Virus record (IMG/VR): IMGVR_UViG_3300021375_000014
Span: 1 to 64,000 of that record
DNA length: 64,000 nucleotides
Source of the DNA: a virus
Direction: 5' to 3' (one strand)
Each line of letters opens with the position of its first letter. The first letter of the stretch is position 1. Position numbers and translations under genes: made by a program. Shown piece after piece: positions 15,365-47,092 of the stretch. The notes beneath the pieces are model-generated. The model was not told the origin of the DNA. It searched no databases and was given only the letters and a program-made list of their open reading frames with translations.

Positions 15365-15390
15365 AAAAGCACCTAATAGGTGCTTTTTTT
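15365..15390. terminator. bidirectional intrinsic terminator
   Basis: AAAAGCACCT-aat-AGGTGCTTTTTTT between convergent thyA and the radical SAM cluster. Confidence 0.85.
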
Positions 15391-16501
15391 ATGTCTTACG
15401 TTTTGGTATTTTACTATCTGCACTACTGACACAACTCTTGCTTATGCACGGCATTGGTTTGTCAAATAGTTTAAATCCACTTTCGATGTATCCCAATGGC
15501 TGATCTGAACAACTATAACTGCGTTTTATACTACCATCTGGTTCACGAATTATGATGCCTTGATAACCGCTATTACAACTCCAGCCTTCAAAGTTATTAA
15601 AATTAAATGCATTGAAACGCTCAGCCTGATCCATATACCATTTCTTGCCTTTCGAATCGGTAAATTCAACTTGCATATGCCACGGCACGCTTTTATCATT
15701 TTGACCAATAGCATATGCTGGAACTTGGAAATTGGGTTTGGGTCTATCATTCCATTTACGTTTTACCTCAGTATAAGCAAGTTGCGGCATACCATTCCAC
15801 AATCTTTTCATCTGTTCTTCCGTATATCCATCAACTACACGGCTTGCAGTAGGATCAGATTGCGGCTTCAATGTTACATTGATACCTTGTTCGTGAAAAA
15901 ATAATGCATTGTCCCAATCACGTTCAAACCAGTCTGGCACCATAACCATATTCACTGTAATTTGCACATCATTTTCTTGACATAATATAAGTTTATCTGC
16001 AAACTCTTGCATCTTATCTCTTGTGTTAAGATGTTCAGTATGTAAACTAGCAGTGATACTTGCACGATGAAATGGTTTAACTCTATCTACATAATCCTCA
16101 TGCCATTTAACATTACGTGACATATTAGTTGTCATATGAACACTGGTGTAGTTGGTATTTGATACATCGTCTGCAAGATGTTCCAGAATATCTAAATATC
16201 CTGGATGAAAGGTTGGTTCACCACCAGACAATGAAAAATGAAAACTATTAAATCCGTTTTCACGTGCTTGTCTCTTTATTTCATCTATGGTTCGTAGACA
16301 TAGTTCAGTAGGACGGTGGTCTTTACGGTCACTGCGGGCATAAGGCCAACAGTAGGAGCATTTGTAGTTGCAGAATCTTCCAAGTAACCAACTAACAGTA
16401 AATAGGTCACGGTACAATAAAGTACGCTGACCAACACTAACAATATCGTCAAATGGTATTTTTGTAAAGTCATAGTTAGACCATTTTAAATCTTCGCTCA
16501 T
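15389..16501 (-). CDS. radical SAM protein with C-terminal twitch/SPASM-like domain (subtype B)
   Basis: CNYKCSYC, SGGEPT, WSCNSG...DG..RSYSC...CISKSC. Confidence 0.92.
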   Translation of the reverse strand: MSEDLKWSNYDFTKIPFDDIVSVGQRTLLYRDLFTVSWLLGRFCNYKCSYCWPYARSDRKDHRPTELCLRTIDEIKRQARENGFNSFHFSLSGGEPTFHPGYLDILEHLADDVSNTNYTSVHMTTNMSRNVKWHEDYVDRVKPFHRASITASLHTEHLNTRDKMQEFADKLILCQENDVQITVNMVMVPDWFERDWDNALFFHEQGINVTLKPQSDPTASRVVDGYTEEQMKRLWNGMPQLAYTEVKRKWNDRPKPNFQVPAYAIGQNDKSVPWHMQVEFTDSKGKKWYMDQAERFNAFNFNNFEGWSCNSGYQGIIIREPDGSIKRSYSCSDQPLGYIESGFKLFDKPMPCISKSCVSSADSKIPKRKT

Positions 16502-16504
16502 AAT

Positions 16505-17461
16505 CTATAAGTCCTCTTTAATAAATGTATCACGCTTCATCTGTTTACATACTTGCATACAACGAGGTACAGGATTATCACTATTCCAACTATTAACTAT
16601 ACCTTGCCATACATCGCTACTTATAGCATCTTCAACACTTACATTATTCAAGTTAATTGAATTTTTATAATCAGTATCTCTAAGTAATGTCTCATAACTA
16701 TCTTTGGTATTACCACTTACGCCATACTCCAATGTCTTTGCATTTAGATGACAACAAGGAATAACATCACCTGTATGGTTTATAAAAATTCGTTTTTGAT
16801 TTCCATACTTACAACTTACATAAGGAATTTCTGGTGCAGTATCAATCTTCTCTGTATTTGCTGCTTTTACATTTCCAGTAGTGTCTTTACGATGGCTAAT
16901 AATAGTTTTGAAGTTTTTAAAACCCTCAGCCGTGGCTTTATTTTTGGCTTTCTCCAATTGATGTTCGTTATGTTCGAACACGATAAACTGCCATACACTT
17001 TTGCCACCAGCTGCATTGAAAGATCGATAGTTTTGTTCTACTTTTTTGAAATTACTACCCTGCCGATATACTTCACTTAGTTCATCACTGCCGTCAATTC
17101 CCCAAGTAACATTATGGCTACTTGGTAAAATACCTGCTAACTCAGTCCACCAGTTAGTAGTTCGCAAACTACCGTTTGTTGCAATATTGATGTGCGTATT
17201 CCAATCAGCAAAATGACGGATAATATCAAAAAACTGTGGATGACTTGTTGGTTCGTCTATACTGCCACAAAAGTTTACAATTTTAATACTAGGAAATAAT
17301 TCTTTTTTAAATTTTTCACGTATAGTTTCTATTGTAAGATATTCTTTATTGATAAGATCATCAGCGTGTTTGGATATAACTCGCAAACAACCTTTGCACT
17401 CAATATTACAAAAACTAGTAAGTTCTATATCTAACCATTCTATTGTATCCATACTCCACAT
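16505..17461 (-). CDS. radical SAM protein (subtype C)
   Basis: ELTSFCNIECKGC, CGSIDEP, TNGS, C-terminal VIPCC...CMQVC. Confidence 0.9.
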   Translation of the reverse strand: MWSMDTIEWLDIELTSFCNIECKGCLRVISKHADDLINKEYLTIETIREKFKKELFPSIKIVNFCGSIDEPTSHPQFFDIIRHFADWNTHINIATNGSLRTTNWWTELAGILPSSHNVTWGIDGSDELSEVYRQGSNFKKVEQNYRSFNAAGGKSVWQFIVFEHNEHQLEKAKNKATAEGFKNFKTIISHRKDTTGNVKAANTEKIDTAPEIPYVSCKYGNQKRIFINHTGDVIPCCHLNAKTLEYGVSGNTKDSYETLLRDTDYKNSINLNNVSVEDAISSDVWQGIVNSWNSDNPVPRCMQVCKQMKRDTFIKEDL

Positions 17462-17465: not shown

Positions 17466-18653
17466 TTATTCTCCCTGCATTGAATTATTTTTTAGATGGT
17501 AACCCAATTTCGAGTAATTATCAGTTACATAGTTACGAATATCGTTCCATAATTCACTATCTATATCACCAAAACTAGTTCCACGTATCAAGTCTAAGTG
17601 TTCTGTGTATTTTATAAACTCAGTCATTAGTGTATATGTAGTTAATGGATCATTCTCAGGCTGTGATAATATACTACGTATAGTGTCGTGATGTGGCAAA
17701 TTAATATATTTTTGTCGTATACTCCATGGCAGATTTTTAATATTTAATTTTTCTGGCCAAGTTAATGGTGATACTACATCACATTCTTCAACTAAATCAC
17801 CTAGATCATCATTTAATTTAAAGTAACTAGTTAAGTTGTAAATCTGTATAGTTTGACTGATTGTATATTTCCAATTTGGATAATCTTTCCCTATGATTCT
17901 ATAACGTTTTATAGTGTCCTTTAGTTTACTGTATGTACTATTAGTACGAATATAATCATTGATTTCACCAACACTGTCAATACTAAATTGCCAAACAATG
18001 TTAGGAAAATGCTTGACAAGATCAAACCAATACTGTTTGGTGGCAGTTGCATTAGTTGTTATCATAATATCAATGTCAGTATTGTTGCACTCTATTAACT
18101 TAGTTAAAATATCAAAACATTGTGGAGTTAAACTAGGTTCACCTCCTAATAGACGAAGTTCTTTGATGTCTTTAAGATGCTCACTGATTAATCCACTATT
18201 TACTTCTGTAATTGAAGGATTAATAAACTTTTCTTTTGCTATTTGACTACTAGCAATCTCATTACACATTCGACATTTAAGATTACACTTATTACTTAAC
18301 CGTAAGTCTAACGCAGAAGGAATGGAGGTATCTGTTATCTTATTTTTTTCATAGTGGTTAAGATATTTTTTATTCCTATCCTGCCTTTCACTCACAATCC
18401 CTAGATCTTCATTTCGATAACACGTTGCACAACTTGGATGCTCTGTATTTTCAAGCATCATCGTGCGCAAATTATTAAATTCACTATCAGCAAATAAACT
18501 ACGCATATTATCATGGCTACTGTATTTTACGCCTATGTAATTCGGATCTTGTACACAACAACTTTTAACACTGCCATCAGGATCAACATTTAGACTCGTA
18601 AAAGGAGCAACACAAAATTTAGATATGTTGTCTATTTCAGATTTATACCTCAT
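17466..18653 (-). CDS. radical SAM protein with N-terminal SPASM/twitch domain (subtype A)
   Basis: FCVAPF..KSCC..CATC before CNLKCRMC, GGEP; start probably 18653. Confidence 0.9.
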   Translation of the reverse strand: MRYKSEIDNISKFCVAPFTSLNVDPDGSVKSCCVQDPNYIGVKYSSHDNMRSLFADSEFNNLRTMMLENTEHPSCATCYRNEDLGIVSERQDRNKKYLNHYEKNKITDTSIPSALDLRLSNKCNLKCRMCNEIASSQIAKEKFINPSITEVNSGLISEHLKDIKELRLLGGEPSLTPQCFDILTKLIECNNTDIDIMITTNATATKQYWFDLVKHFPNIVWQFSIDSVGEINDYIRTNSTYSKLKDTIKRYRIIGKDYPNWKYTISQTIQIYNLTSYFKLNDDLGDLVEECDVVSPLTWPEKLNIKNLPWSIRQKYINLPHHDTIRSILSQPENDPLTTYTLMTEFIKYTEHLDLIRGTSFGDIDSELWNDIRNYVTDNYSKLGYHLKNNSMQGE

Positions 18654-19899
18654 GCCAATATTTCCTGAATTCTGGATAAACATCTAATATATTAGTTCCG
18701 TGGTGTTGGTCTTGTGCATTAGCGTATTCAATAAAGTCATCCCAATAATGATACCAATCCTCGCCATTCATATAATTAATTACGTTGTCACCAAATTTCT
18801 TCCATCGCTCAAATGATCTGTTTACAAATTTTTGTGAGTGATTATAAGATTGCATCCATTCTCTATCTCCATTAATCAATTCATCCCAATCATTTGTTAC
18901 TTTTTCTTTTAATGCCGGTGGTAACAATTTAGGATTTAATGGTTGAGGAAACTGAACAATACTTGTGTGATAATCAACTCCCATTGAATAATAATACTTG
19001 GCGATTTCAGTTGCTCTGGTAATATTTAATAAATTGGCTGTCATTGTTGCACTTAGTTGAATATTGCTTAACTGTAGTGCTTTTTTTATATTATCTTCTG
19101 CTATCGATAAATTACCTCGCACTCTAACGTATTCGTATATTTCAGGATACGCATCCAAACTAACTCGTATACTAACACGCTTAAAATGCTTCCACAAATC
19201 TAGTATACTTTTTCCCTTGTATTCTAGTGTACTAAAATTACTATTATATTGTAATGTAATATGGTTTGCTTCAGGTAAAATACGCTCTAAAAAATCATAA
19301 TGCTTATCATGGAACAAAGGCTCTCCGCCTGTAATCATCAATTCAGTAAGGTTAGGACTAAGTGAAACCACTTCATCAATTATCTCTTGTGTTAGACTAA
19401 CATGATTTTCAAGTTCCCTGTATGTTCCAACTTTTTTCATTTGCCCCATTAATATAGGATCTCGTTTCGCCTTCTGTTCCCATATGCTACTATATGTAGG
19501 TGAACAATGTCTGCACATTAAATTACAAATATTATCAAAACGTATTTCAATACTTTGTAGATTTTCAATTGGGTAACTGCCATCTTCTTCAATATTATTG
19601 ATAATAGTATTACTATCAACATCGGGATACATTTCAGACGCATTTTGGCGTAAACTTTTAGCACCACTACGTTCTAAATCCCAACAACTTATACATCCTT
19701 TATGCTGAACTCCATTTACTAATTCGGTTCGCACTTTACGTAACTGGTCGCCATTCCAAGTATCTGCAAGTGTATCTGTTAGAAAATCTCCAACCTTATC
19801 TGGATATCGCCAACATGCACTCAACTTGCCTTCATTTTTGATGTTAATATGATGGAAAGGCATTATGCAAAATGTATCACTCTTATTCTTATCAGCCAT
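18643..19899 (-). CDS. radical SAM protein, N-terminal SPASM/twitch (subtype A)
   Basis: FCIMPF..ACW..CISC, CNLMCRHC, TGGEP. Confidence 0.92.
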   Translation of the reverse strand: MADKNKSDTFCIMPFHHINIKNEGKLSACWRYPDKVGDFLTDTLADTWNGDQLRKVRTELVNGVQHKGCISCWDLERSGAKSLRQNASEMYPDVDSNTIINNIEEDGSYPIENLQSIEIRFDNICNLMCRHCSPTYSSIWEQKAKRDPILMGQMKKVGTYRELENHVSLTQEIIDEVVSLSPNLTELMITGGEPLFHDKHYDFLERILPEANHITLQYNSNFSTLEYKGKSILDLWKHFKRVSIRVSLDAYPEIYEYVRVRGNLSIAEDNIKKALQLSNIQLSATMTANLLNITRATEIAKYYYSMGVDYHTSIVQFPQPLNPKLLPPALKEKVTNDWDELINGDREWMQSYNHSQKFVNRSFERWKKFGDNVINYMNGEDWYHYWDDFIEYANAQDQHHGTNILDVYPEFRKYWHEV

Positions 19900-21309
19900 T
19901 TATATATCCTTAAATATGTCTTTCATCTCTACAAAGGTAGAACTGAAACTATTGTTGCGCTGCCTATCACATAGACTTAAATATTCTTTTAATTCTGGTA
20001 ACCTAATGCTCCAGTCTTCACTTTCCATAAATTGTAACATGCCTTGAAGACGTTTTATTCCGTATTCAGCTTCGATAAAATTTTCTTGTGTTATATTTTC
20101 CTTATGCCAACTTGGGATACCTTTTTCCCAATTCTCTTCCCACCATGGATAGAACTCTTCATACTTTTTACGTATTTCTGCTTTGAACCATTCGGGTAAT
20201 ACTTTAACGTTTAGGTGCGGAGGATGATAAACAAAGTGATAGTTAATACCACCTGCGCCAAACGGCCACATGTTTATTTTCGTAAAACCCTGTTCTAGTT
20301 TCCATCTGATGAAATCAGGTAAGTAGTAAATGTTTAAAGCCTGCACAGCACATGCAACTGTTACTTCTACATTGTCACTTGTTTGTGTATCTAATATATG
20401 AAATACTTCTTCCTGTCTGCTCCAGTTACTAGGATATCGAATATAATCATTCATACTCCCAATACTATCAACACTATAGTGAAAGCGTACTAATTTAAAT
20501 TCTTTCCATAGATCAAATAAATCATCTCTCCACTCTACGCCATTTGAGTTATAACGTAGTTCTAGATTCTTTGCATAACCATTACTAATTGCATGTTCAA
20601 GTATTTCGTAGTGTTCTTCAATAATAAGACTTTCGCCACCTGCAAAATATATCTGTTGCATACTAGGCATCTGTTCGTAAAACTGTTTCCAAAATTTTGG
20701 GTTTTGCTTGTGCCAATTATAACTACTTCTATTAGTACTACCTTTATCAGCCCACTGCATTGTTTCCTTTAGCGATTCGTTTTTTACCTCCGGAAAAATC
20801 TTTTTGTAATCTTTAATCCAACCACTACTATCATGTGGACTACACATCACACATGCTAATTGACACTTAGTACCAAATCTTAAATCAATATATGCTAACT
20901 GTGGAGGGACACCACCGTCTTCAGATGTGTTTTCGATAAGTTCATCAACATTTACACGTTTACTCCAATAATTTGTTTCCCACATACGTTTACTATTATG
21001 TCCCGATGCCTCTTCTTTGTAACACTTCATACAACTAGGAGGCTTTTCACCATTAAGCATTTGTAGTCGTACATTCTTCATGTAATTAGAATTCCAAGCA
21101 GTTTCGAAGTCACTAACATTTAGATTGTTTGGTTTGCCATCGTCTGTTTTCAGAATTCCAATTTGCCCGCCATTAACTTTATCATTGGTTGGACCAACGC
21201 TACTTGCATTTGCAGTACAACATACTCGCATACTGCCATCAGGACGAGTGCTAAGGTGTACCCATGGCAACAGACAAAATGTATCACTTGGATATTTTTT
21301 TTCAGACAT
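19900..21309 (-). CDS. radical SAM protein, N-terminal SPASM/twitch (subtype A)
   Basis: FCLLPW..RVCC..CMKC, CQLACVMC, AGGES. Confidence 0.92.
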   Translation of the reverse strand: MSEKKYPSDTFCLLPWVHLSTRPDGSMRVCCTANASSVGPTNDKVNGGQIGILKTDDGKPNNLNVSDFETAWNSNYMKNVRLQMLNGEKPPSCMKCYKEEASGHNSKRMWETNYWSKRVNVDELIENTSEDGGVPPQLAYIDLRFGTKCQLACVMCSPHDSSGWIKDYKKIFPEVKNESLKETMQWADKGSTNRSSYNWHKQNPKFWKQFYEQMPSMQQIYFAGGESLIIEEHYEILEHAISNGYAKNLELRYNSNGVEWRDDLFDLWKEFKLVRFHYSVDSIGSMNDYIRYPSNWSRQEEVFHILDTQTSDNVEVTVACAVQALNIYYLPDFIRWKLEQGFTKINMWPFGAGGINYHFVYHPPHLNVKVLPEWFKAEIRKKYEEFYPWWEENWEKGIPSWHKENITQENFIEAEYGIKRLQGMLQFMESEDWSIRLPELKEYLSLCDRQRNNSFSSTFVEMKDIFKDI

Positions 21310-21335: not shown

Positions 21336-21364
21336 ATTATACTAACATTTTAAATGATTGTCAA
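21336..21364 (-). promoter_or_regulatory. perfect sigma70 consensus promoter internal to the cluster
   Basis: Minus strand TTGACA(21364-21359)-N17-TATAAT(21341-21336); GGAG RBS before 21309. Confidence 0.88.
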
Positions 21365-21369: not shown

Positions 21370-22152
21370 TTAATCATTAATTATTTCTCCATACGCCCAT
21401 TCACGTTCCTGACACCACCAACAAGTATTACACGTTTTAGTCCAGTTATCGGTTTTATGACCATCCCCTTCACAACTACGAGTGATCTTATCTAGTGTAT
21501 CAAGTATACCGAGGTTATCTGCCAACCACATTGTTACACGTTTATCTGCATTACGAAATGGTTCAACATATCTACAATCATCACCATTTGCATTGTGTAC
21601 CACAGTACAACTATCTATTGCAACTGCCGGACTGTTAGGGTCATTGTGGTCACGTTTTACTTCTCTATACTGGTGCATATTATCGATAGTCATAGGCACA
21701 GGCGGATTTTTAGTGACACCATTATAATCATGTACTCTACACACTTGATTATTTGGCATTTCTGCTTTTCGAATTGGATTATAATTTTGCGAAACTAAGT
21801 TTTTTTGTGCAGCAAGATATGTTGCACTTCCATTTTCCCACCAGTTTATTGCATCTAACCACTGTTTGTCTCTGATATCAGCATCTGGTATTTCTTTTCT
21901 AACCCAATCTATAATAGTATCTACTATTGGTCTATTATCAACCCGATAAAGCCATGTTCTGTCATCATCTGGATTTGCACGAACTACTGTAATAGGTTGA
22001 ATTATAGCATTAGGATTTGTTTCTGCGCATGTTTGTGCAACCATATACAATAATAGTGCACTATCAAATCCGCCACTAGTGCGAACTGTTATCATTTGTG
22101 ATTCTACCGGTATATAAACTGTACCATATGGTGTATTATAAATTTTGTTCAT
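21370..22152 (-). CDS. QueC-like PP-loop ATP pyrophosphatase
   Basis: SGGFDS PP-loop; TRSCE...CNTCWWCQER Zn motif. Confidence 0.8.
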   Translation of the reverse strand: MNKIYNTPYGTVYIPVESQMITVRTSGGFDSALLLYMVAQTCAETNPNAIIQPITVVRANPDDDRTWLYRVDNRPIVDTIIDWVRKEIPDADIRDKQWLDAINWWENGSATYLAAQKNLVSQNYNPIRKAEMPNNQVCRVHDYNGVTKNPPVPMTIDNMHQYREVKRDHNDPNSPAVAIDSCTVVHNANGDDCRYVEPFRNADKRVTMWLADNLGILDTLDKITRSCEGDGHKTDNWTKTCNTCWWCQEREWAYGEIIND

Positions 22153-23224: not shown

Positions 23225-24206
23225 TGTACTTATCTCCTTTTTTCATATTTTTAATCTTAGTTGTTTGTAAATCAGTCAGACAACCACATAAGTTCCACTT
23301 ACATTTTACTGGTAGTAATGGAATACTATAATTTTTATCCCTAATATTACCATATTTTAAGTTCTTAAAACACTGGCTACCTGGTTTAATCCAACCATTA
23401 TGTTGAACTACCAGTGTTTCAACTCCCATATAACAATACCAATCTTTCCAATCATTTAGTTTTGGTAATAGTATTTCATTTTCTATACTTTTAATTTTTA
23501 CTGGTTCTTCTCCGTCTTTTCTCCACTGCATTATGCTTTGTTGTTTTTTATTTGGTGTTCCGTGTAATGTCTGCAAAGAATTCATTGTTGCTAATTGTAC
23601 ATCTGTGTACGGTTGTAAGTCATGCTTCCGTATTGATATTCTAACAGGCTTGTATTGTAAACTAATATTATGGGTTAAATTATCATACAAATATTTATAT
23701 GTGGCAACACACCCATCAAATTGTGCAATATCCATCATAACATGCAATGATATATTTATACCCGATTGTTGAACTTGATTAAATTTTTCAACAATCTTTT
23801 CTTTTTTGGTCTGCCCCTCATGAATACTTACAATAAGCAAATCGAATAAATGTGCTCTATCAGTCCACCATTTTGTGCCGCGTGTGCCGTTAGTTAATAA
23901 TCGGATTATATTATTTTCATTTATATTTTTAATATACTCACAAACTTTATCCACCTCTGGCCATAATGCAGGCTCACCACCATGAAAATTAAAAAACATT
24001 ATTTTTTTCTGTGGGACACATATTTTTTCCCATATAAAATCAATGAACCTAACACAATCATCAAAATCATGCCAGGGAACTCCGCCATCCCAACATGCTG
24101 GATCACAGTAAGAGCATTGAAAATTACAAGTGTTTCCTGCAGCCCAATCAATGATTATTGCATTTTCTGACGCGGGTTCAAAATAATCATATTCATCTTT
24201 TGTCAT
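23175..24206 (-). CDS. radical SAM protein with C-terminal twitch (subtype B)
   Basis: CNFQCSYC, GGEP, WYCYMG...C...CKWNLCGC. Confidence 0.92.
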   Translation of the reverse strand: MTKDEYDYFEPASENAIIIDWAAGNTCNFQCSYCDPACWDGGVPWHDFDDCVRFIDFIWEKICVPQKKIMFFNFHGGEPALWPEVDKVCEYIKNINENNIIRLLTNGTRGTKWWTDRAHLFDLLIVSIHEGQTKKEKIVEKFNQVQQSGINISLHVMMDIAQFDGCVATYKYLYDNLTHNISLQYKPVRISIRKHDLQPYTDVQLATMNSLQTLHGTPNKKQQSIMQWRKDGEEPVKIKSIENEILLPKLNDWKDWYCYMGVETLVVQHNGWIKPGSQCFKNLKYGNIRDKNYSIPLLPVKCKWNLCGCLTDLQTTKIKNMKKGDKYIDTDVSTGAYTITTRD

Positions 24207-32618: not shown

Positions 32619-32621
32619 ATC

Positions 32622-39272: not shown

Positions 39273-40935
39273 TATTCATTCTCTCTATGGCGCCTGCTAG
39301 GTCAGGTAAACTTTCTTTCCAATCTTCGTTTCGTAACTTATCTAATTTTATAGTTGTTTCTTTAAATTTATTCCAAATTTTACTATCTGGTTCTTTACTC
39401 CACATTTGCGCTAATACTTGACGTAATGAATGTTCAGTAATTTCACACCATAACATACCATGCGTAGTACATCTTGCATCAGGCCAACGTTTCCATATAT
39501 GACTGATAAATCTATTATATAATTCATCAACCTCTTGCTTTAGCCTGTCGGGTAAATGGTGTATACTATATTCTTCAGGTCCGTAAACCAAATGTACATG
39601 AATTTCATTGTTAAGTCTAGTATAATTTTGTTCCTTCATCCAATACATAAAATCCGGTAAATGAAATACATTCATTACACTACATGTAAGAGTTATTTTG
39701 CCTGTTAAGTTGTCTAGTCCTGTCGCAGTATCAATCTCATTGAGAATGCGTTCAGTTTTATTCCACTTACCAGGATGTCGGATATATTCAAAATGACTAT
39801 ACATCCCGTCTAAACTAAGTCCCAATGAAACATCTTTAAATTGTTTCCATAATTTAAAATAACTTTTAGTACTTGCTGCTGCATTAGTGTTATATTCTAA
39901 GGTAACATTCTTGGAATGTCCAGCATCTATTATATTTTCTAAAAGTTCTTTATGTTTATGATTGATGGTAGGTTCGCCACCAGTAAAGTAAATTCGTTTA
40001 ATATCAGTAATATTATTATTAATATCGCTCCATAATCTAGAATCTTCGTACCAACTTTTCATATGTGGTATTTCAAGTTGTCCTTTTTTATTTGTTATAA
40101 TTGCAGCTTTTTCGCCGTCTAAATCAATTATAATATTAGTGTTGCCATCGTCTTCTTGAATAGATTTATAATCTTTATACCACAAGTCACTATTTGATGG
40201 GCCACAAGTTCTACATTTTAGATTACACTTATTGCCAAATCTCAAATCCCACCATTCAATAGGAAAGTCAGCATGGGATATCGTACCGTCTTCATCTGTC
40301 ATATCAAGTGCTTTTGCCATTGTATCTGGAAATGATTGATTGGCATATGCGCGCCTAGAAGACGGTATATTTGTATCGGATGAATCTTCTTCTTCCCAAC
40401 ATAGTTTACAAACAGAACTTCGTTTTCCTTTAAGCATGTCACTTCTGACTGTTTTCCACAACTTTGCATTACGATGCTCCGAAATGTTGTCATTGTAGTT
40501 TAGTAATCTACCGTCATCTTTTTTTATCAATCCTACATTTGATAGTGAATCATTAAAAATCATTTGGCAACACGCTCTGATTGTACCGTTTGCATTTGTT
40601 CCAGCATGAACCCAAGGAATACTACAAAATGTTTTATGCATTGGGTGGGATTTATCTACTTGTTTAGGTTTAGAAGCCTCTAATTTTTTAAATTCTTTTA
40701 ACCATGCAGCAAAATCAATATTACTATTTTTATATATCAATTTTTCTATATCATCATTGCAACGATCAGTATTCAACACAGCATATAATACTATCGGATC
40801 CGTGTCAAACTGAGCAACTGATTCTAACACATTTAGTGGACAATCTTCATGTTCTACCATAGCAATACGTTCGGCTGCAGTACGTCTTATACTACTATCT
40901 AAATTAAACATGTTTTTATTAATTAAATCTACCAT
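39199..40935 (-). CDS. radical SAM protein, N-terminal SPASM/twitch (subtype A) with extra helical N-terminal extension
   Basis: FCSIPW..RACC..CKLC, CNLKCRTC, TGGEPT; N-terminal HEAT/LRV-like segment. Confidence 0.92.
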   Translation of the reverse strand: MVDLINKNMFNLDSSIRRTAAERIAMVEHEDCPLNVLESVAQFDTDPIVLYAVLNTDRCNDDIEKLIYKNSNIDFAAWLKEFKKLEASKPKQVDKSHPMHKTFCSIPWVHAGTNANGTIRACCQMIFNDSLSNVGLIKKDDGRLLNYNDNISEHRNAKLWKTVRSDMLKGKRSSVCKLCWEEEDSSDTNIPSSRRAYANQSFPDTMAKALDMTDEDGTISHADFPIEWWDLRFGNKCNLKCRTCGPSNSDLWYKDYKSIQEDDGNTNIIIDLDGEKAAIITNKKGQLEIPHMKSWYEDSRLWSDINNNITDIKRIYFTGGEPTINHKHKELLENIIDAGHSKNVTLEYNTNAAASTKSYFKLWKQFKDVSLGLSLDGMYSHFEYIRHPGKWNKTERILNEIDTATGLDNLTGKITLTCSVMNVFHLPDFMYWMKEQNYTRLNNEIHVHLVYGPEEYSIHHLPDRLKQEVDELYNRFISHIWKRWPDARCTTHGMLWCEITEHSLRQVLAQMWSKEPDSKIWNKFKETTIKLDKLRNEDWKESLPDLAGAIERMNNAEQRKQRTKLADYSNKKSKAHKI

Positions 40936-42315
40936 CTACTGTTCCTTAAAAAATTCTATTTCATTATCACTGTAATTTACAAGAGATTCCGAATTATTTA
41001 TATCACGAATAGGAACTAAACTAAGTGAGCCCTTCATGCGTCCGTTTGCACCAGGCGTATGCCACTGTGAAATATTGAGTATTTTATCACGCATTGTTTC
41101 TGCTCTTTCTAGAAATCCTGGTGGGGTCATTAGTTTTATCTCAAGCCAATTATCTTCGTCAACTTTATCATGATGATCCATAATTATTTTACAATTTTCA
41201 ATGAATCTTTCTTCGTTGCCTCGGTATAGATCCATACTAGCAAAATGTGCACTCATATTAACACTATTAATATATTTTATTGCTTCACTCCAGAATTTTG
41301 TACTTCGACTGCCATTTGTAGTTACCAATATCCATTGATTTCGAGACTTTAAATATTTTAAAATGTCAATGAATTGCGGATGCATTGTAGGTTCACCTCC
41401 ACCAAAATTCCATCTGATTTGTTCGCCGTTGCCCCAATTATCGATAATCATATCGATAGTATTTATAACAGTTTCATATGATGGAAACTTTTCAGTATTA
41501 CTATGAACTGCCGGCCAACAATAGTCACATGCATAATTACATCGTCTTCCAATGTCCCATAAGATTTGATATGGAATAGGAAAGTTCATTTCTACTCCAA
41601 CGCTTTCATCTATATTATCAGTGAGATAATTCTTGCCACCACGTTTAGTGCCATCATATTGATTATGTGTCACATCCAGTAACTTCATATGTTCTACGGT
41701 TTTTGCTTTACTTAAAATTACATCCGCACCGCAGCCACAACTCTTAAAAGGACAAACTGTATAATTTTCAGGTATATCAATACCTTCACGAATATTGCCT
41801 AACAACCCCCAATTTTTCGGTATGTCATCTAATGTACTTTCCCATTTCCATGCACTTGCAGTTGTATCAATATTATCTGTTTGTATATTCTTTCCTAAAT
41901 TCTTGAAAAAAGTTTCTTCTGCTTCTTTTAATGCATCTTGTAGTTTAATATGTTGTTCGCATGTTTCCCAACCGTTCTTAGGCAACGGCCAACCACCTAT
42001 TGTATTTTCATTATACCATTCAATATGCGGATAAGAACCAAATATTCTTTCACGCTCAACCCTCCATCCTTCTACAGTTGTATCATGATGTGCAGTACTA
42101 TTTCTATGACTACTGGCACAGTTGCCATTCCATATATTACCATCATAATCTATATAAAGTCCACGCACTCCGGCACTACACTGCCATCCCTTCCATTTGT
42201 TATGTTCTCTTGCAATAGCCTCATCCACACTCATTCTAATAAACTTACCATTCGTATCATACACACGTAGTTGTTTATTATCTAATGGAATCCGAGGATC
42301 TGATTTAATCGGCAT
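40936..42315 (-). CDS. radical SAM protein, domain-permuted subtype B
   Basis: WKGWQCSAG..IDYDG..C...CPFKSCGCGAD precedes CNYACDYC/GGGEPT. Confidence 0.9.
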   Translation of the reverse strand: MPIKSDPRIPLDNKQLRVYDTNGKFIRMSVDEAIAREHNKWKGWQCSAGVRGLYIDYDGNIWNGNCASSHRNSTAHHDTTVEGWRVERERIFGSYPHIEWYNENTIGGWPLPKNGWETCEQHIKLQDALKEAEETFFKNLGKNIQTDNIDTTASAWKWESTLDDIPKNWGLLGNIREGIDIPENYTVCPFKSCGCGADVILSKAKTVEHMKLLDVTHNQYDGTKRGGKNYLTDNIDESVGVEMNFPIPYQILWDIGRRCNYACDYCWPAVHSNTEKFPSYETVINTIDMIIDNWGNGEQIRWNFGGGEPTMHPQFIDILKYLKSRNQWILVTTNGSRSTKFWSEAIKYINSVNMSAHFASMDLYRGNEERFIENCKIIMDHHDKVDEDNWLEIKLMTPPGFLERAETMRDKILNISQWHTPGANGRMKGSLSLVPIRDINNSESLVNYSDNEIEFFKEQ

Positions 42316-43312
42316 CTTCTAAGACCTCATATCTATTTTTAGGAAGTAATTTTTTACTCATAATATCAAAGTTACAATGACACATACTTTTTGTGCACAT
42401 TACAGGCTTAGTTGGCCATTTGATATTCTTTGGTAACTTCATATTACCAAGAGTTCCGCCCACTCTACACCAGCCAATCATTACACTACCATCAAAGTCT
42501 ACTACAATCTGTTCTATTCCACTCCAACACAACCAACCTTTCCAGTTGTTTGTCTTATCATTAATAAAACGATGTGCACTGCTATTTTCACTTAAATTAT
42601 TAACATCATCGTGCATTTGCATACTACCACGATATATAGGCCAAGACTTTGTATGTTCTATATTACTTGCTAGATCATGCCATTGTCTATCAATGTATCC
42701 TATTTGTGCATCAGTATAAGTATAAAGTGTTTCACCAAAATCTATAATTAACGGTTGCAAAGCAAGGCTAATATTTGGAATACTAATAACGGTTTCAGCA
42801 AGGTCTTGACAGATTGGCCATATTTCAGGATCATAATGCATCATTATGTTTACATGGGTACGACATTGTTCACTCATAATCTTAACTACGTTAAGAAAAT
42901 GTTCGGCATCGCCTTCTTCTGGATGAAAGCTTAAGCAAACATGATCGAATTTCTCTTTGTTCTTTTCCCACCACCGTACGGTACGACTTCCATTACTGAT
43001 AAATCCAATGTCGTGTCCAATAGATTTAATATATTCAGCACACTTAATAAAATCTTTCCATAAGGTTACTTCTCCTCCAGTAAATTCGAAATATACTTTA
43101 CGAGGGGAATAATGTTCTACAGTGGCATCAATGAATTCATGAATAATTTTAAAATCATTCCATCCAAAACTACCATCATTTAGTATACTAGGACAATATG
43201 AACAAGTAAAATTGCACATATTACCCAAATTCCAATTCACAACTACCCAATCTTTACACTCACTGTGATGATGATCTAGTCGATTATAAAAGTCTTGTGG
43301 TCCTAAGGGCAT
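42305..43312 (-). CDS. radical SAM protein with C-terminal twitch (subtype B)
   Basis: CNFTCSYC, TGGEV, WKGWLCWSG...CTKSMCHCNFD. Confidence 0.92.
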   Translation of the reverse strand: MPLGPQDFYNRLDHHHSECKDWVVVNWNLGNMCNFTCSYCPSILNDGSFGWNDFKIIHEFIDATVEHYSPRKVYFEFTGGEVTLWKDFIKCAEYIKSIGHDIGFISNGSRTVRWWEKNKEKFDHVCLSFHPEEGDAEHFLNVVKIMSEQCRTHVNIMMHYDPEIWPICQDLAETVISIPNISLALQPLIIDFGETLYTYTDAQIGYIDRQWHDLASNIEHTKSWPIYRGSMQMHDDVNNLSENSSAHRFINDKTNNWKGWLCWSGIEQIVVDFDGSVMIGWCRVGGTLGNMKLPKNIKWPTKPVMCTKSMCHCNFDIMSKKLLPKNRYEVLEDAD

Positions 43313-43492
43313 CTACTTATCTTTGTCCATTTTATTATTCATTTGTTCTTCCAAACGTTGCACAGATTGTAATATTTCCCATAGTTTCCAATCCATAGTT
43401 TTTGCTAATTCTAAAATTTCAGCATTAAATTCATTGTTATTTTCTTTGACTTCATCAATTGGTGCATCCAATAGTCTTATTTTCTTAACCAT
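43313..43492 (-). CDS. 59-aa micro-protein MVKKIRLLDAPIDEVKENNNEFNAEILELAKTMDWKLWEILQSVQRLEEQMNNKMDKDK (not in ORF track)
   Basis: AGGAG RBS; its TAG abuts the radical SAM ATG at 43312. Confidence 0.8.
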   Translation of the reverse strand: MVKKIRLLDAPIDEVKENNNEFNAEILELAKTMDWKLWEILQSVQRLEEQMNNKMDKDK

Positions 43493-43520: not shown

Positions 43521-44477
43521 TTATCTATCCCAACCGGTTGATTTTTCAGTTGCCAGTGGATTTCCTACACGCTTGGGATTTATGTAAACTAATTTAAAAA
43601 AGTTTGACATTTCTGCTGTTGGATCACATAATTCCATTCCTAGCATTTCTGATAATTTATCACCTAATTCTAATGATTTATCATATAACAAGTCTTCATC
43701 GAATTCAGAATTGTCTGACAAAAATTCTGGATATATATCATCATGAAAATAAGATTTGAACCAATCATAATCACTAATACTTTCAGTGATAAAGGTTTCA
43801 TCGAAGTTGACACGATAACATCCCAGACGCGCACCATATATTGCCCATAAACCATTTTCTATATCTGCACCAATATTACACCAGGTAAGTAATCGATGAT
43901 AATTCTTTGGCCAAACTTTAGTTTTAAATTTAGAAGGTTCAATAATTTTGCCTTCATCCAACGACATTTTAACACCTTCACGAAAACCACTACGAAATGC
44001 TTGAAATGGTGATCCACTATTAAATATCATTGAATATGTATTATTCATTTGCTTGTAATCTAAATCCCAACAAAAGTCAAGTTTTTTAGTTTCATTATCT
44101 GCATTCTCATGAGTCCGCATATCTAACACAAGTTGTACAGGCCAGCATTTAATGCCACCATTGCCATATACTAATCCATTTGTTATGTTCTTTGCGCCCC
44201 AGGATATTACACTTTTACTTATATCAATGTTGGTAGGAAAATTCAATACAAGATCAAAGAATTTTTCATCAACGATATTATCACCATCAATAGTTATAAA
44301 TCTATCTGATTTACTTTCACGCGCACAAGCCTTATGTGCATTATCAAATCCTTTTACGCCATCAATACGTTTTGCGTGTGGATACTTCTTCAATAAATCG
44401 ACATAATGCTCTTCTTTGTTAGGTTCATCATAACTAAGATAAAAAATATCTAAGTCTTTAATTGTAATTGTAGTCAT
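43521..44477 (-). CDS. glycosyltransferase-like protein (paralog of 27825..28916)
   Basis: YLSYDEPN, GFDNAHKACA, TIDGD, YGNGGIKCWP, AFRSGFREG. Confidence 0.7.
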   Translation of the reverse strand: MTTITIKDLDIFYLSYDEPNKEEHYVDLLKKYPHAKRIDGVKGFDNAHKACARESKSDRFITIDGDNIVDEKFFDLVLNFPTNIDISKSVISWGAKNITNGLVYGNGGIKCWPVQLVLDMRTHENADNETKKLDFCWDLDYKQMNNTYSMIFNSGSPFQAFRSGFREGVKMSLDEGKIIEPSKFKTKVWPKNYHRLLTWCNIGADIENGLWAIYGARLGCYRVNFDETFITESISDYDWFKSYFHDDIYPEFLSDNSEFDEDLLYDKSLELGDKLSEMLGMELCDPTAEMSNFFKLVYINPKRVGNPLATEKSTGWDR

Positions 44478-45046
44478 AATAATCTTTTATCCTTTATTGA
44501 ATAAGTTTCTAGTATCTCTTCAGTTATATACATACTTATGTCATCGTATTTATGTATGTAGTTAATTGTATATTTTTCACCAGAAATTAACTTTTCATAA
44601 TTTAAATTTACAGCATCAATTATAAAATCAGGCTCGTCTTTTAATGTAATATAGAAATTTTGATTTAACTTAGCAAGCAATGTGGTGTCTACCGATATAT
44701 CTTTTGCTAACTGAAATGAAAATCCTGTGTCAATAATATCAATAATAATTGTCGGATTAAACATTGTTTTCAATTTTTGTATATTATTTTTTATATGTAT
44801 AGGTTTTTTTCTATCTTTTTGAACAATATAATAACTCACTGTATCATTTTTGTAAATGACATGGAAATCATCAATTTTTCGTGTGCCATCTAATAAAATA
44901 CTAATATCAGAAGTTTTAAAGTATGCATATGTATTATTACTATCAGAACACACACGGTTTTCAAATGATTCGATTGTGCCATTATCGTCAAAATAAACTA
45001 TCTTGTAATCATCAGAGTCCTTTATATTTTTTATACACTCGAACAT
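44474..45046 (-). CDS. hypothetical protein
   Basis: 190 aa, overlapping both neighbours. Confidence 0.7.
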   Translation of the reverse strand: MFECIKNIKDSDDYKIVYFDDNGTIESFENRVCSDSNNTYAYFKTSDISILLDGTRKIDDFHVIYKNDTVSYYIVQKDRKKPIHIKNNIQKLKTMFNPTIIIDIIDTGFSFQLAKDISVDTTLLAKLNQNFYITLKDEPDFIIDAVNLNYEKLISGEKYTINYIHKYDDISMYITEEILETYSIKDKRLL

Positions 45047-45891
45047 AATACTACATCCTCATATTTTTCAATAATTGAATCTGTGAGCCAATCTTTTTCT
45101 ACATAATGAAATGGCATTATTATTTCTTGATTATTAACAACAATTCTCAAATCATCAGTTACATAACTTGGCAATGTTTTATTCCAAGCAGAAGATATAC
45201 TTCTATTTGGTATATTCTGTACGTGACTTTTCATATGTACAAATTTGGGAACAACTGAGTTGATAGTAATAGAACTATTTGATGGGAACAACTTTGCAGC
45301 CAGAGAGAATGCAATATCAGCACTTATCCAATCTTGCCCTTCATCATCCAAGTATGCATTATAGTAATAATCCCAATTTTCCATAATATCTTGAACTAAT
45401 CTAAAGTATTGAAATGATTTTTTAGATTTATTAAAGTAAGTAAAATTACTGTATATGTCAGGAAGTTCACAACTTGTAAATTTTTTACGATAATAATCAC
45501 TTGTTACTGGTTTATCTCTAAATGTTCTGGCATTGGAACATAAGCATACATCCGATGAGGCTAGAATGTCCCACCAATGATCGACTGACGCAGTAAACAA
45601 CTGGTCAGAATCGAGTATAATAGTTTGGTCGAATGGAGACATATGAATATATTTCCATTTATTTTCTATTTTCCATGTCGAAGATGCCGCATTATCTTTC
45701 CAGGGTATATCAATTATGTGGTCAAATATATCGATATGCTTTTGTTCTAATCTATCGCCAGTCTTGTTATCAACACAAAGACAAACTAAATTTTCTTCTT
45801 GTGTTGCTTTTATACTCAGCGCCAACGCATATGACAATCGCAAGTGGTCAACATCTGAATTTTGAGCAATTATAATGTAACCTCTACTCAA
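45031..45891 (-). CDS. glycosyltransferase-like protein (GT8/mannosyltransferase-like)
   Basis: RGYIIIAQN, ALALSIK, SPFDQTIILDSD, FVHMK, FHY. Confidence 0.65.
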   Translation of the reverse strand: MSRGYIIIAQNSDVDHLRLSYALALSIKATQEENLVCLCVDNKTGDRLEQKHIDIFDHIIDIPWKDNAASSTWKIENKWKYIHMSPFDQTIILDSDQLFTASVDHWWDILASSDVCLCSNARTFRDKPVTSDYYRKKFTSCELPDIYSNFTYFNKSKKSFQYFRLVQDIMENWDYYYNAYLDDEGQDWISADIAFSLAAKLFPSNSSITINSVVPKFVHMKSHVQNIPNRSISSAWNKTLPSYVTDDLRIVVNNQEIIMPFHYVEKDWLTDSIIEKYEDVVLCSSV

Positions 45892-46748
45892 TTTGCCATA
45901 CCATATTCAAAGAAACTGTCTATATTTTTCATAATGCTTCCCTTGTTCATTATGTGCAAATCAGTATTCTGAATCCTAACCATATTGCCACTTTTTTTAT
46001 TCATCTTAGTAAGCATTAAAATATTAGTCGGACTATCAATTCTAAAGATTCTATCTGTATCAAAACTATTCATCAAGCAATTTATAGGCAATTTAGGAAC
46101 AATATCATTCATACCATTTGTAATAATATGAAGTGCAATTGAAAACGTATGGTCATTACGATATAATTTTATATCACAGGAATACTTTTTATAATACCAC
46201 TTCCAATTATTTTTTATGATATCAACCATACTAAATAACATTGAAGTAAATTCACTCTTTCTAAAATAAAGTAACGTTGCCCAATACATGTCAATGCTGG
46301 TGTTAGATATTTTAATAACGCTATCTAAATTATTGTTAGAAATATCAGAATAGTTTTTAGTAATCATGAAATCGTTTTTACTTCCCCATACACCATCCAA
46401 TACATCAGACATTATAAAATAATCACAATCAATTACTAGAGTTTCATCATACGGTGATAAGTTATAAACATTTCCTCTATTAGTATTAATAAATTTCGCA
46501 TTTACTGAATCACTATAAGTATCATGATATTTACGAGTAGTGGCATCAGTGGGAACTGGTACTATGATGGTTCTATCAAAATACATATTAACTAATTCTT
46601 CATTGCCAGATAATGATTCTTTATCTGTAACTAAACATATTTCATGAAATCCAGACAAGTTTCTTCTTGCATAGCCTGCACTTGCACATGCTATCATAAC
46701 ATAATCTATATACTTATTATTATGGGAAAATATTATTATACCATTCAT
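45888..46748 (-). CDS. glycosyltransferase-like protein (paralog of 45031..45891)
   Basis: GIIIFSHN, SPYDETLVIDCD, YWAT, RNDHTFSIA, HIMNK. Confidence 0.65.
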   Translation of the reverse strand: MNGIIIFSHNNKYIDYVMIACASAGYARRNLSGFHEICLVTDKESLSGNEELVNMYFDRTIIVPVPTDATTRKYHDTYSDSVNAKFINTNRGNVYNLSPYDETLVIDCDYFIMSDVLDGVWGSKNDFMITKNYSDISNNNLDSVIKISNTSIDMYWATLLYFRKSEFTSMLFSMVDIIKNNWKWYYKKYSCDIKLYRNDHTFSIALHIITNGMNDIVPKLPINCLMNSFDTDRIFRIDSPTNILMLTKMNKKSGNMVRIQNTDLHIMNKGSIMKNIDSFFEYGMAN

Positions 46749-47092
46749 TATATTTCTAATGCTATTTCAATTTTTGATGAACTACGCAACTGTTCATACT
46801 GCATATAAAAATCATTCACAACTTCAAAATATTTACAAGAGACAGTTTCTAATAGTTCGACAATATCATTTATTCTAATAGGCAAATTATTTCTATCTAG
46901 AATGACAATGGTTTTCTTATTATTTTGTACAGCATAATTCAAGAATCCAATAAATTCTTGAGTTATATCAAACGATCCACCATTTTCATGATGTATTAGA
47001 GCAGTTGAAACTTTATCTTGCATAATCTTTTTATTAAGATTAAATGTACACAATGTGTTTCTATAGGATAAAATATCTTGTAAATCTTCCAT
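46748..47092 (-). CDS. hypothetical phage protein
   Basis: Likely start MEDLQ at 47092, because a promoter lies within the longer ORF; NGGSF, ILDRNNLPI. Confidence 0.7.
   Translation of the reverse strand: MEDLQDILSYRNTLCTFNLNKKIMQDKVSTALIHHENGGSFDITQEFIGFLNYAVQNNKKTIVILDRNNLPIRINDIVELLETVSCKYFEVVNDFYMQYEQLRSSSKIEIALEI

Follow-up and report, generated by a model that had tools for sequence, protein, structure and literature searches.

What would a marine giant phage do with twelve radical S-adenosylmethionine (SAM) enzymes? Such enzymes come at a high cost, are sensitive to oxygen and seldom number more than one or two in a phage. The question is raised by the IMG/VR virus record IMGVR_UViG_3300021375_000014, a 95,949-bp fragment of an uncultured marine giant phage, of which we analysed the first 64 kb (hereafter the window). 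The record is 26% complete according to CheckV, which puts the genome at roughly 370 kb, the size of a jumbo phage. An island at positions 15389-47092, with all its genes on the minus strand, devotes about 30 kb to twelve radical SAM proteins plus transferases. In the reading that we favour, and to which we give about even confidence, the island enzymes would tailor an activated sugar in the cytoplasm, and fibre or baseplate proteins, or else the host envelope, would then receive the product.

A preliminary description of this DNA had reported twelve co-oriented CxxxCxxC proteins in four subtypes, and this held in every respect. Each of the twelve open reading frames (ORFs) contains one CX3CX2C motif (12 of 12), where that description had placed it, and all-against-all BLASTP of the island proteins returned the same four paralog groups: subtype A (17466, 18643, 19900 and 39199; genes are named here by their lower coordinate), subtype B (15389, 23175, 40936 and 42305), subtype C (16505, 22136 and 24203) and a B12 subtype with the single member 37128. 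The Pfam cut-off for Radical_SAM (PF04055, 29.5 bits) is passed by ten of the twelve genes. Gene 24203 stays slightly under it (26.7-28.7 bits), and gene 22136, without a Pfam match, was recognised by partial NCBIfam matches and by its paralogy to 16505 (E 2e-39) and 24203. The motif that binds the SAM-cleaving [4Fe-4S] cluster is thus intact in all twelve; it is invariant in alignments of subtypes A, B and C, which also conserve auxiliary-cluster cysteines. The radical SAM genes are the following:

17466-21309, minus strand: three tandem radical SAM genes with an N-terminal twitch domain (NF033640; 421, 326 and 263 bits)
19900-21309, minus strand: conserved core gene, subtype A
18643-19899 and 17466-18683, minus strand: subtype A paralogs of 19900
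39199-40935, minus strand: N-terminal-twitch radical SAM with an N-terminal extension of about 100 amino acids (341 bits; CX3CX2C at residue 237)
15389-16501, minus strand: subtype B radical SAM, core component and last gene of operon I (Pfam 59.4 bits)
23175-24206, minus strand: subtype B radical SAM (Pfam, CX3CX2C and BLASTP paralogy)
40936-42315, minus strand: subtype B radical SAM with its radical SAM core in the C-terminal half (CX3CX2C at residue 259; Pfam 49.9 bits)
42305-43312, minus strand: subtype B radical SAM with a viperin/MoaA/STM4011-like core (CX3CX2C at residue 33; Pfam 38.4 bits; partial NCBIfam matches only)
16505-17461, minus strand: subtype C radical SAM with a C-terminal SPASM match (Radical_SAM 35 bits, SPASM 24.1 bits)
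22136-23224, minus strand: subtype C radical SAM (paralogy and partial NCBIfam matches)
24203-25369, minus strand: subtype C radical SAM, core component (CX3CX2C)
37128-39272, minus strand: B12-binding (class B) radical SAM, candidate C- or P-methylase (PF02310 and PF04055)

Subtype A corresponds to the NCBIfam family NF033640 (N_Twi_rSAM), whose cut-off of 170 bits is exceeded by 17466 (262.7 bits), 18643 (325.8 bits), 19900 (421.3 bits) and 39199 (341.0 bits). The remaining eight radical SAM proteins score 21-52 bits against this model and are not members. A four-cysteine twitch domain precedes the CX3CX2C core in subtype A: in an alignment of ten diverged members three of the cysteines (C12, C93 and C96) are invariant, the fourth, C30, is retained in at least 90%, and a GGE motif is conserved alongside the cysteines and CX3CX2C. 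The Pfam SPASM matches fall at residues 11-97, before the core, and the N-terminal domain aligns to the twitch domain of the butirosin enzyme BtrN (E 2e-4), a distant and partly generic likeness in which the domain order is reversed with respect to BtrN. A full-text search by family name returned general SPASM/twitch papers and no paper on a characterised NF033640 member, so that membership of the family gives no function by itself.

The other subtypes have signatures of their own. In subtype B, the family of 15389 is narrow, with 65 representatives at E<=1e-30 among 1.84 billion, and has four invariant C-terminal cysteines; comparison of its phage members with its bacterial ones gives a mean column identity of 71%. 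Subtype C carries, downstream of CX3CX2C, the motif FCGNxGDP, which by our own reading would occupy the position of the GGE motif, and a conserved C-terminal PCC...C...C. The best match of its profile in the PDB is BlsE, the cytosylglucuronate decarboxylase of blasticidin S synthesis (E 1.6e-8 over about 170 positions), again a distant and partly generic similarity. Gene 37128 combines a borderline B12-binding match (PF02310, 32.8 bits for a cut-off of 32.1, residues 153-220) with a radical SAM domain (PF04055, 51.7 bits, residues 311-470). Its partial NCBIfam matches, all under the cut-offs, are to the PhpK family, to C-methyltransferases of ribosomally synthesised and post-translationally modified peptides (RiPPs) and to lipid B12-radical SAM models, and its relatives were found on six IMG/VR contigs only.

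Interleaved with these genes are the transferases and other tailoring genes of the island:

28950-30485, minus strand: NodU/CmcH/TobZ-type carbamoyltransferase (Carbam_trans_C 185 bits, cut-off 27; Carbam_trans_N 159.6 bits, cut-off 24)
25985-27844, minus strand: tandem class I SAM-dependent methyltransferases, family X (25985-26902, core gene; 26903-27844, paralog)
27825-28916, minus strand: GT-A (GT2-like) protein of family Y, core component, with an N-terminal extension of about 134 amino acids (34% identity to 43521 over residues 135-358)
43521-44477, minus strand: GT-A (GT2-like) glycosyltransferase-fold protein of family Y (AlphaFold2 model)
45031-45891, minus strand: GT8-like candidate glycosyltransferase of family Z (protein-atlas lead and DxD)
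45888-46748, minus strand: GT8-like candidate glycosyltransferase of family Z (paralog of 45031; DxD)
25281-25946, minus strand: QueC-like PP-loop ATPase (Pfam QueC 24.7 bits, C-terminal zinc region only)
21370-22152, minus strand: QueC-like PP-loop ATPase, paralog of 25281 (Pfam, BLASTP and alignment)
31133-31864, minus strand: DUF6071 (SGNH-like) protein, first gene of operon I (PF19547 34 bits, cut-off 27)
33781-34764, minus strand: SGNH-like protein with a C-terminal domain paralogous to DUF6071, last gene of operon II (Lipase_GDSL_2 22.9 bits, under the cut-off of 32.9)
34808-35605, minus strand: Stf0-like sulfotransferase candidate (PF09037 24.7 bits, cut-off 22, E 1.9e-5, residues 112-208; no NCBIfam match)
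35602-36246, minus strand: KdsB/NeuA-like cytidylyltransferase candidate (CTP_transf_3, PF02348, 23.9 bits, cut-off 22.6, residues 13-81 only)
36248-37183, minus strand: 311-amino-acid protein without a match in Pfam, NCBIfam, PHROGs or the protein atlas
44474-45046, minus strand: 190-amino-acid protein without a match in Pfam, PHROGs or NCBIfam, present in five close relatives only
46748-47092, minus strand: small protein, first gene of operon II, without a family match; homologues in the same position in 12 viral loci

Two of the assignments made previously, one carbamoyltransferase and two methyltransferase-like genes, were confirmed. Both carbamoyltransferase domains of 28950 lie far above their cut-offs (E 1e-54 and 2e-46). 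The protein scores 158.3 bits against the NodU equivalog NF041651, whose cut-off is 1000, and is a superfamily member, not NodU itself. Enzymes of the NodU/TobZ type mostly O-carbamoylate sugars and antibiotic hydroxyls. For families X and Y we turned to structure prediction since sequence-profile searches of the PDB yielded chance-level matches only. The AlphaFold2 model of methyltransferase 25985 (predicted local distance difference test score, pLDDT, 89.6) gave a Foldseek E value of 4e-7 and at least 500 matches at E<=1e-3; among the matches listed all have the class I SAM-binding fold and nearly all are methyltransferases, NodS, RebM and MtmC being among the nearest.

The glycosyltransferase (GT) assignments proved to be of two kinds. 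The model of 43521 (pLDDT 86.6) was matched by Foldseek mainly to GT-A-fold sugar transferases and sugar-nucleotidyltransferases. VIA-align returned 35 chains at Z>=8, all GT-A transferases and related nucleotidyltransferases, with the A197 glycosyltransferase of STIV as best match (Z 10.5, rmsd, root-mean-square deviation, 3.7 over 136 residues). A second viral enzyme, A64R of PBCV-1, was matched at Z 8.3 and at a Foldseek E value of 7.7e-4. Both viral proteins are GT-A enzymes that glycosylate virion proteins, and both share the fold of family Y at about 10% identity. The DxD of family Y (D64, D66) is invariant, and the family forms at least 7,458 clusters in metagenomes, all unannotated. 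Family Z, found in phages only, has an invariant DxD (D94, D96) and an invariant histidine; the nearest named protein-atlas clusters of 45031 are Nucleotid_trans and Glyco_transf_8 (0.95, 157-164 shared features), which we take as a lead only. Of the four GT-like genes announced at first, 43521 and the C-terminal half of 27825 therefore have a GT-A fold with DxD, and 45031 and 45888 stay GT8-like leads with DxD. None of the four has a function match in Pfam, NCBIfam or PHROGs, which places them outside the curated GT2 and GT8 families.

The remaining assignments were sustained in part. The two QueC-like genes belong to a family in which SGGxDS and a four-cysteine zinc site are invariant in 18 members. 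However, 25281 reaches 18.9 bits for a TIGR00364 cut-off of 150.3, 21370 has no match to that model, and in the PDB, where the family profile matched AsnB, TtuA, LarE and QueC, asparagine synthetase, TtuA and ThiI rank above QueC. Judged by these motifs they are real PP-loop proteins, but by score they are not QueC. The two SGNH-like proteins are paralogous and share GCSFTxG (in place of GDS) and HPxxxxH, but their database scores are weak, with one weak GDSL match in the PDB (E 0.19). The matches of the sulfotransferase-like and NeuA-like genes are marginal, and all seven PDB profile matches of the latter are CMP-Kdo synthetases, that is, of KdsB type (E 0.007-0.25, over the N-terminal 60 amino acids).

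Which of these genes form the invariable part of the island? We counted their families in 86 viral loci and in bacterial loci, as follows:

Core gene 19900: homologue in 80 of 86 viral loci
Core gene 24203: 75 of 86 viral loci; 39 bacterial loci
Methyltransferase X: 68 of 86 viral loci; 22 bacterial loci
GT-A protein Y: 27825-type in 57 and 43521-type in 28 of 86 viral loci; 11 bacterial loci (27825-type)
Core gene 15389: 26 of 86 viral loci, a count limited by the length of flank fetched

By this homology census, the conserved core consists of five genes: the radical SAM genes 19900, 15389 and 24203, the methyltransferase 25985 and a GT-A gene of the 27825/43521 family. Orthologues of 19900, with identities of 82-94%, were counted on 313 IMG/VR contigs or more, and the related contigs are marine, estuarine and freshwater. 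Two contigs of one sample (L001 and L081) reproduce the island gene for gene, and the others mix different paralogs. In the five larger related fragments, which each carry 2-10 N-twitch genes above the NF033640 cut-off, a gp6-like baseplate gene lies on the same strand (5 of 5), the island begins 13-33 kb downstream of it, and most N-twitch genes are about 25-30 kb from it. The position of the island is thus conserved, in agreement with the synteny that had been expected of relatives. The gp6-like protein of these fragments retains 34-36% identity to that of the window, as against about 82% for 19900 and 81-85% for 15389. Two explanations offer themselves: exceptionally strong constraint on the core enzymes, or movement of the island from one jumbo phage to another that has diverged from it. 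A core gene that stays 82-94% identical over hundreds of contigs while the baseplate wedge has drifted to about 35%, together with more than 7,000 unannotated GT-A clusters, points to strong selection on an abundant and sizeable set of enzymes whose chemistry is new.

The same core occurs in bacteria. In a scan of one genome per prokaryotic species, the family was found mostly in Bdellovibrionota, complete chromosomes included, where 19900-like (about 60% identity), 15389-like (62-65%) and 24203-like (43%) genes stand together. Genes of methyltransferase family X and GT-A family Y are present in these clusters too, as are additional paralogs of all four radical SAM subtypes (A, B, C and B12), and gene orientations are mixed. 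Their commonest bacteria-only neighbours are two GT2 families (16 bacterial loci each), and a PMT_2 protein and a flavin adenine dinucleotide oxidoreductase are likewise nearby. Judged by shared genes, the island is not unique: hundreds of phage contigs and Bdellovibrionota chromosomes share its core, and two groups of cultured phages have small versions. In a quick tree, the viral 19900 orthologues form one clade (Shimodaira-Hasegawa-like approximate likelihood ratio test, SH-aLRT, 99); its rooting on paralogs, with a branch length of 10, is unreliable, and we claim no direction of transfer between phages and Bdellovibrionota. Five contigs from metagenome-assembled genome (MAG) bins, assigned to Crocinitomicaceae, Neisseriaceae, Rickettsiales, Gammaproteobacteria and Acidimicrobiaceae, have co-oriented phage-type islands and 19900 orthologues at 51-82% identity. 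Two of them (L088 and L089, Crocinitomicaceae and Neisseriaceae) fall within the viral clade and the other three (L106, L144 and L112) form its sister group; all five are probably phage contigs mis-binned into MAGs.

These observations bear first on the substrate. We favour a sugar because of the GT-A fold with DxD, the NodS/RebM/MtmC-like methyltransferase, the NodU/TobZ-type carbamoyltransferase, the matches to BlsE and BtrN and the bacterial GT2 neighbours. The KdsB-like, Stf0-like and GDSL matches add support that appears weak but coherent. From the gene content, motifs and folds we infer the following course. The five-gene core would perform the defining chemistry on an activated sugar, its radical SAM enzymes abstracting hydrogen from unactivated C-H bonds and so oxidising, epimerising, deoxygenating, decarboxylating or rearranging the skeleton. 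The nine further radical SAM paralogs would make lineage-specific extra edits, the B12-dependent one as a candidate C-methylase. The two PP-loop enzymes may activate a carboxylate by adenylation and so yield an amide or nitrile, while the NodU-type, Stf0-like, methyltransferase and SGNH-like proteins would add or remove carbamoyl, sulfo, methyl and acyl groups. The KdsB/NeuA-like enzyme could make a CMP (cytidine monophosphate)-activated acidic sugar, and the GT-A and GT8-like transferases would place the product on its acceptor.

As to where this would happen, the enzymes are all predicted to be soluble, and the only segment of transmembrane type in the island is in an 89-amino-acid ORF at 30598-31133. 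Pfam scans of the window, together with the lack of transmembrane segments in the enzymes, gave no flippase, polymerase, exporter or initiating phosphoglycosyltransferase (undecaprenyl-phosphate transferase). By this predicted inventory the process would be cytoplasmic and not lipid-linked. The same soluble inventory, the lack of a flippase, polymerase or undecaprenyl-phosphate transferase and the fixed place downstream of the baseplate and fibre genes lead us to favour the phage's own fibre or baseplate proteins as acceptor and to rank a host envelope sugar second. PBCV-1 A64R glycosylates the major capsid protein of its own virus, and the viral GT-A matches to our model may also support an acceptor on a phage structure. 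The evidence at hand separates the possible acceptors indecisively. Accordingly, the decorated-glycan pathway proposed previously is upheld in its sugar-handling part, through the folds, DxD motifs, BlsE/BtrN matches and GT2 neighbours, and is left without a decision between its acceptors. As a tentative extension, rather speculative in our judgement, the N-twitch family may form a new carbohydrate-radical branch together with its two constant companions, the uncatalogued radical SAM families. The product would be a heavily edited, possibly acidic sugar of a new class, which abundant marine jumbo phages would attach in the cytoplasm to their fibre or baseplate proteins and which Bdellovibrionota would carry on their surface. 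If so, two kinds of bacterial predator, jumbo phages and Bdellovibrionota, would share a glycan 'cloak' or adhesion device.

When and by whom might the island be transcribed? The preliminary description had seen a single, mostly translationally coupled cluster of about 32 kb next to the baseplate operon. Gene packing is indeed tight, 22 of 28 junctions being overlaps or gaps of at most 4 nt, and the cluster does adjoin the baseplate genes. Yet the island is two operons, not one 32-kb cluster: at 30598-33773 it is interrupted by genes foreign to the pathway and by an early operon on the plus strand. Operon II runs from 47092 to 33781 and operon I from 31864 to 15389, with these elements:

47124-47152, minus strand: sigma-70-type promoter of operon II (TTGACA-17-TATAGT, extended -10 TG)
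21336-21364, minus strand: perfect consensus sigma-70 promoter within operon I (TTGACA-17-TATAAT)
15365-15387, minus strand: hairpin resembling an intrinsic terminator, closing operon I between convergent genes
31918-33773, plus strand: early operon of 1.9 kb on the opposite strand, splitting the island, with three TTGACA...ACGAATCACT...TATA promoters
30864-31133, minus strand: T5orf172/MUG113 gene, GIY-YIG-type and homing-endonuclease-like (PF13455, E 1.9e-18)
30598-31133, minus strand: the T5orf172/MUG113 gene together with the 89-amino-acid membrane-anchored ORF, present in 2-3 relatives only

The operon II promoter sits in an 80-nt gap directly past the stop of the fibre-like gene 47173-48216. 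Since the longest ORF has its first ATG within this promoter, the 46748 gene more likely starts at 47092. The promoter at 21336-21364 occupies a 60-nt gap upstream of 19900, which has a GGAG ribosome-binding site at its start, and a second good sigma-70-type site in operon I lies ahead of 27825. Since each operon has a sigma-70-type promoter of its own, the island is not simply the tail of the baseplate operon; it adjoins the baseplate genes but is probably not driven by them, and host RNA polymerase could probably start both operons without late factors. The T4-type late promoter word TATAAATA is under-represented (8 sites for 16.6 expected; 99 of 100 shuffles gave at least 8), and in the whole window it stands at no operon start, its minus-strand sites all lying inside genes.

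The early operon is not part of the pathway. One spacer word, ACGAATCACT, is common to its promoters at 31918, 32364 and 32622, from which small early genes are driven; one of the genes, 33030-33773, has no Pfam match. The T5orf172/MUG113 gene lies between the carbamoyltransferase and DUF6071 genes, and its presence in only 2-3 relatives suggests a mobile insertion; from this distribution, the genes at 30598-31133 look like insertions and not like parts of the pathway. Short metatranscriptome contigs at >=99% identity, from four RNA libraries of three studies, cover nearly all of the 14-34 kb region. This fits transcription; the data are assembled contigs only, giving no strand, level or transcript ends and allowing DNA carry-over, and the single bin without cover in each of libraries X15, X17 and X18 carries no meaning.

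On its high-coordinate side only, the island is bordered by baseplate genes; the other flank holds convergent plus-strand genes for an exonuclease, an ATPase, HNH endonucleases and a thymidylate synthase, that is, nucleotide metabolism and not virion genes:

47173-62971, minus strand: upstream virion module with the gp25-like gene, the gp6-like gene, a giant protein and two fibre-like proteins
62600-62971, minus strand: gp25-like gene (GPW_gp25, E 9.5e-11)
58255-62598, minus strand: gp6-like baseplate wedge protein of 1,447 amino acids (33-37% identity to jumbo-phage baseplate wedge proteins)
48964-58251, minus strand: giant virion protein of 3,095 amino acids, adjoining the gp6-like gene
48227-48901, minus strand: Ser/Thr/Asn-rich fibre-like protein (phrog_11259 match)
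47173-48216, minus strand: Ser/Thr/Asn-rich fibre-like protein, to which PHROGs and NCBIfam give no function
14492-15361, plus strand: thymidylate synthase with canonical ThyA motifs (PCH; PFNIASY / DLFLGVPFNIASY with Asn; C-terminal APMAV)

The gp6-like protein matches those of Serratia phage BF, the Erwinia pEa_SNUABM phages, Klebsiella phage fENko-Kae01 and Salicola phage SCTP-2; Pfam has no match in the 1,447- and 3,095-amino-acid proteins. GC content is even along the window (0.29-0.39), and when 21.6 kb of it were compared by megablast with 50,697 phage records, no cultured phage gave a DNA-level match. We also considered the thymidylate synthase as an island-linked hydroxymethylase. This was rejected: its motifs are canonical, it is convergent with the island, the two sharing the hairpin at 15365-15387, and the adjacency, seen in only 4 of 86 viral loci, is not conserved.

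Several points weigh against sugar tailoring. Many distant matches of the N-twitch family and of subtypes B and C are peptide maturases (SkfB, anSME, CteB, PapB), and we found no characterised member of any of these three groups. The GT-A fold also occurs in nucleotidyltransferases, and the cytidylyltransferase, sulfotransferase, SGNH and GT8 assignments are marginal. Among the window ORFs, Pfam scans gave no gene for making a nucleotide sugar de novo (dehydratase, epimerase or aminotransferase), and the sequence in hand is 26% of the genome. The bacterial GT2 genes stand at the edges of their clusters, possibly by coincidence. On the side of expression, the RNA-library contigs are no proof of transcription, and sigma-70-like hexamers are not enriched overall in this AT-rich window (98 found for 92 expected), which leaves as sites that carry weight, in this sequence-based view, only the two near-perfect ones in intergenic gaps.

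If the product were not attached to a macromolecule at all, the island could make a diffusible metabolite of nucleoside or aminoglycoside type, acting on the host, on competing phages or on grazers. We consider this unlikely, even though the enzymes are all soluble, no acceptor-specific component was identified among them, and the nearest characterised relatives (BlsE, BtrN, TobZ, RebM and MtmC) all belong to antibiotic pathways; the islands of relatives also contain AMP-binding and nitroreductase genes. The island holds neither an exporter nor a self-resistance gene, its four GT-type genes suggest assembly on an acceptor, and surface glycans fit better with its fixed fibre-side position and with the GT2 and PMT_2 neighbours in bacteria.

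Quite unlikely, in our estimate, is a radical modification of protein or peptide, in which the SPASM/twitch enzymes would cross-link, epimerise or methylate a ribosomal substrate and the transferases would decorate the product. The substrate could be the neighbouring giant fibre or baseplate proteins, and the island does adjoin the 3,095-amino-acid virion protein, or else an unlinked precursor peptide. In favour of such chemistry, the maturases named above and the SCIFF maturase match subtypes A-C distantly, RiPP C-methyltransferases are among the partial matches of the B12 enzyme, and the peptide S-glycosyltransferase SunS is among the GT-A matches. But the maturase scores are far under the family cut-offs and come mainly from the generic radical SAM core, and the bacterial homologues stand beside GT2 genes, where we noticed no precursor-like gene. 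One candidate precursor deserved attention:

43313-43492, minus strand: 59-codon ORF with an AGGAG ribosome-binding site, directly upstream of the radical SAM gene 42305

This ORF is acidic, has a KxxxW motif and fills the sole large gap of operon II. It is 86% conserved in L081. It is missing from the close relatives L082-L086, in which the gap is 11 bp and both flanking genes are kept, and we rejected it as a precursor peptide on this ground. Apart from it, the gaps in the operons are at most 112 bp or overlaps, leaving no room for a conserved small ORF, and no conserved precursor-peptide gene was found in the operons.

Finally, hypermodification of phage DNA or nucleotides, in which pairs of PP-loop and radical SAM enzymes would make a 7-deazapurine-like or other base for transferases to decorate on the DNA and so evade restriction, is improbable: the intact PP-loop and zinc site of the QueC-like proteins, the weak similarity of subtype B to the nucleotide-binding radical SAM enzymes QueE, MoaA and viperin, the abutting thymidylate synthase gene and the existence of DNA-hypermodifying glycosyltransferases in phages (bioRxiv 10.1101/2023.12.21.572611) speak for it, but the QueC-like score is a fraction of the QueC cut-off, no TGT/DpdA was found in the 96-kb record, which covers some 26% of the genome, the ORFs of the window gave neither FolE nor QueD, the thymidylate synthase is canonical and separated from the island by a terminator, and the bacterial homologues are chromosomal clusters beside GT2 genes. 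The record also has no Tet/JBP match, which is uninformative as the control genomes gave none either.

Sugar tailoring, which we therefore retain as the preferred reading, would bring the island close to systems already in print. The preliminary description knew of no characterised phage pathway of this size. Our literature search likewise returned passing mentions and no paper characterising NF033640 or this island, but the island is not singular, as arrays and cassettes have been published. The T4-like Campylobacter myophages CP220 and CPt10 carry 11-12 radical SAM genes, which were called highly unusual; five of them lie in an interchangeable central module, and metabolic help at low oxygen was put forward as a proposal only (Timms et al. 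2010, PMC2853527). The two arrays are similar in number (11-12 and 12 genes) but not orthologous: the best tblastn match of the CP220 array is 29% over 124 residues (E 3e-4), in the generic core only, and the N-twitch and B12 queries matched no Campylobacter phage.

Closer in setting are the pelagimyophages and cyanomyophages, which have a fibre-side hypervariable region with GT8 genes, lipopolysaccharide ('LPS') genes and radical SAM cassettes; the cassettes vary between close relatives and are mentioned only, and modification of the host O-chain was proposed (Zaragoza-Solas et al. 2020, PMC7029224). Like the island, these regions are marine, lie beside fibre genes and combine GT8-type transferases, which in the island are candidates, with radical SAM genes. 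Nol-like carbamoyltransferases, common in cyanomyophages, share about 30% identity with 28950 in the cyanophages P-SSM2 and S-CAM8 and in Pelagibacter phage HTVC008M. The difference is that the phage studied here is a jumbo phage of roughly 370 kb, with a gp6-like protein akin to those of jumbo myophages of about 350-440 kb, and that its island is dominated by radical SAM genes; N-twitch homologues were not found in HTVC008M. We regard the island as a novel form, dominated by radical SAM genes, of the glycan-tailoring islands already known from the fibre side of marine myophage genomes. A glycan on the virion or on a surface, should this be the product, would bring a further layer to marine phage-host recognition and radical sugar chemistry of a new kind; the novelty would be as great with a DNA base or a metabolite.

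The question can be taken to the bench with cultured phages of Ralstonia and Vibrio, whose cassettes, far smaller than the island, contain neither subtypes B and C nor the methyltransferase/GT-A core. In Ralstonia phage RsoM2USA, gp199-203 comprise a carbamoyltransferase (gp199, 52% identity to 28950) and one N-twitch radical SAM (E 9e-65 for the profile of the family), flanked by three DUF6071 paralogs. All are annotated as hypothetical, and the RsoM2USA paper does not mention them. In Vibrio phages K566 and K567 the cassette comprises genes 0303-0308. The cultured, 255-kb K566 has four N-twitch-like radical SAM genes within 7 kb (0303, 0305, 0306 and 0308, at 161548-168284 of the record) among hypothetical genes; three of the four are labelled as radical SAM domain proteins, and at a distance of a few kb stands a gene with a PagP-like annotation.

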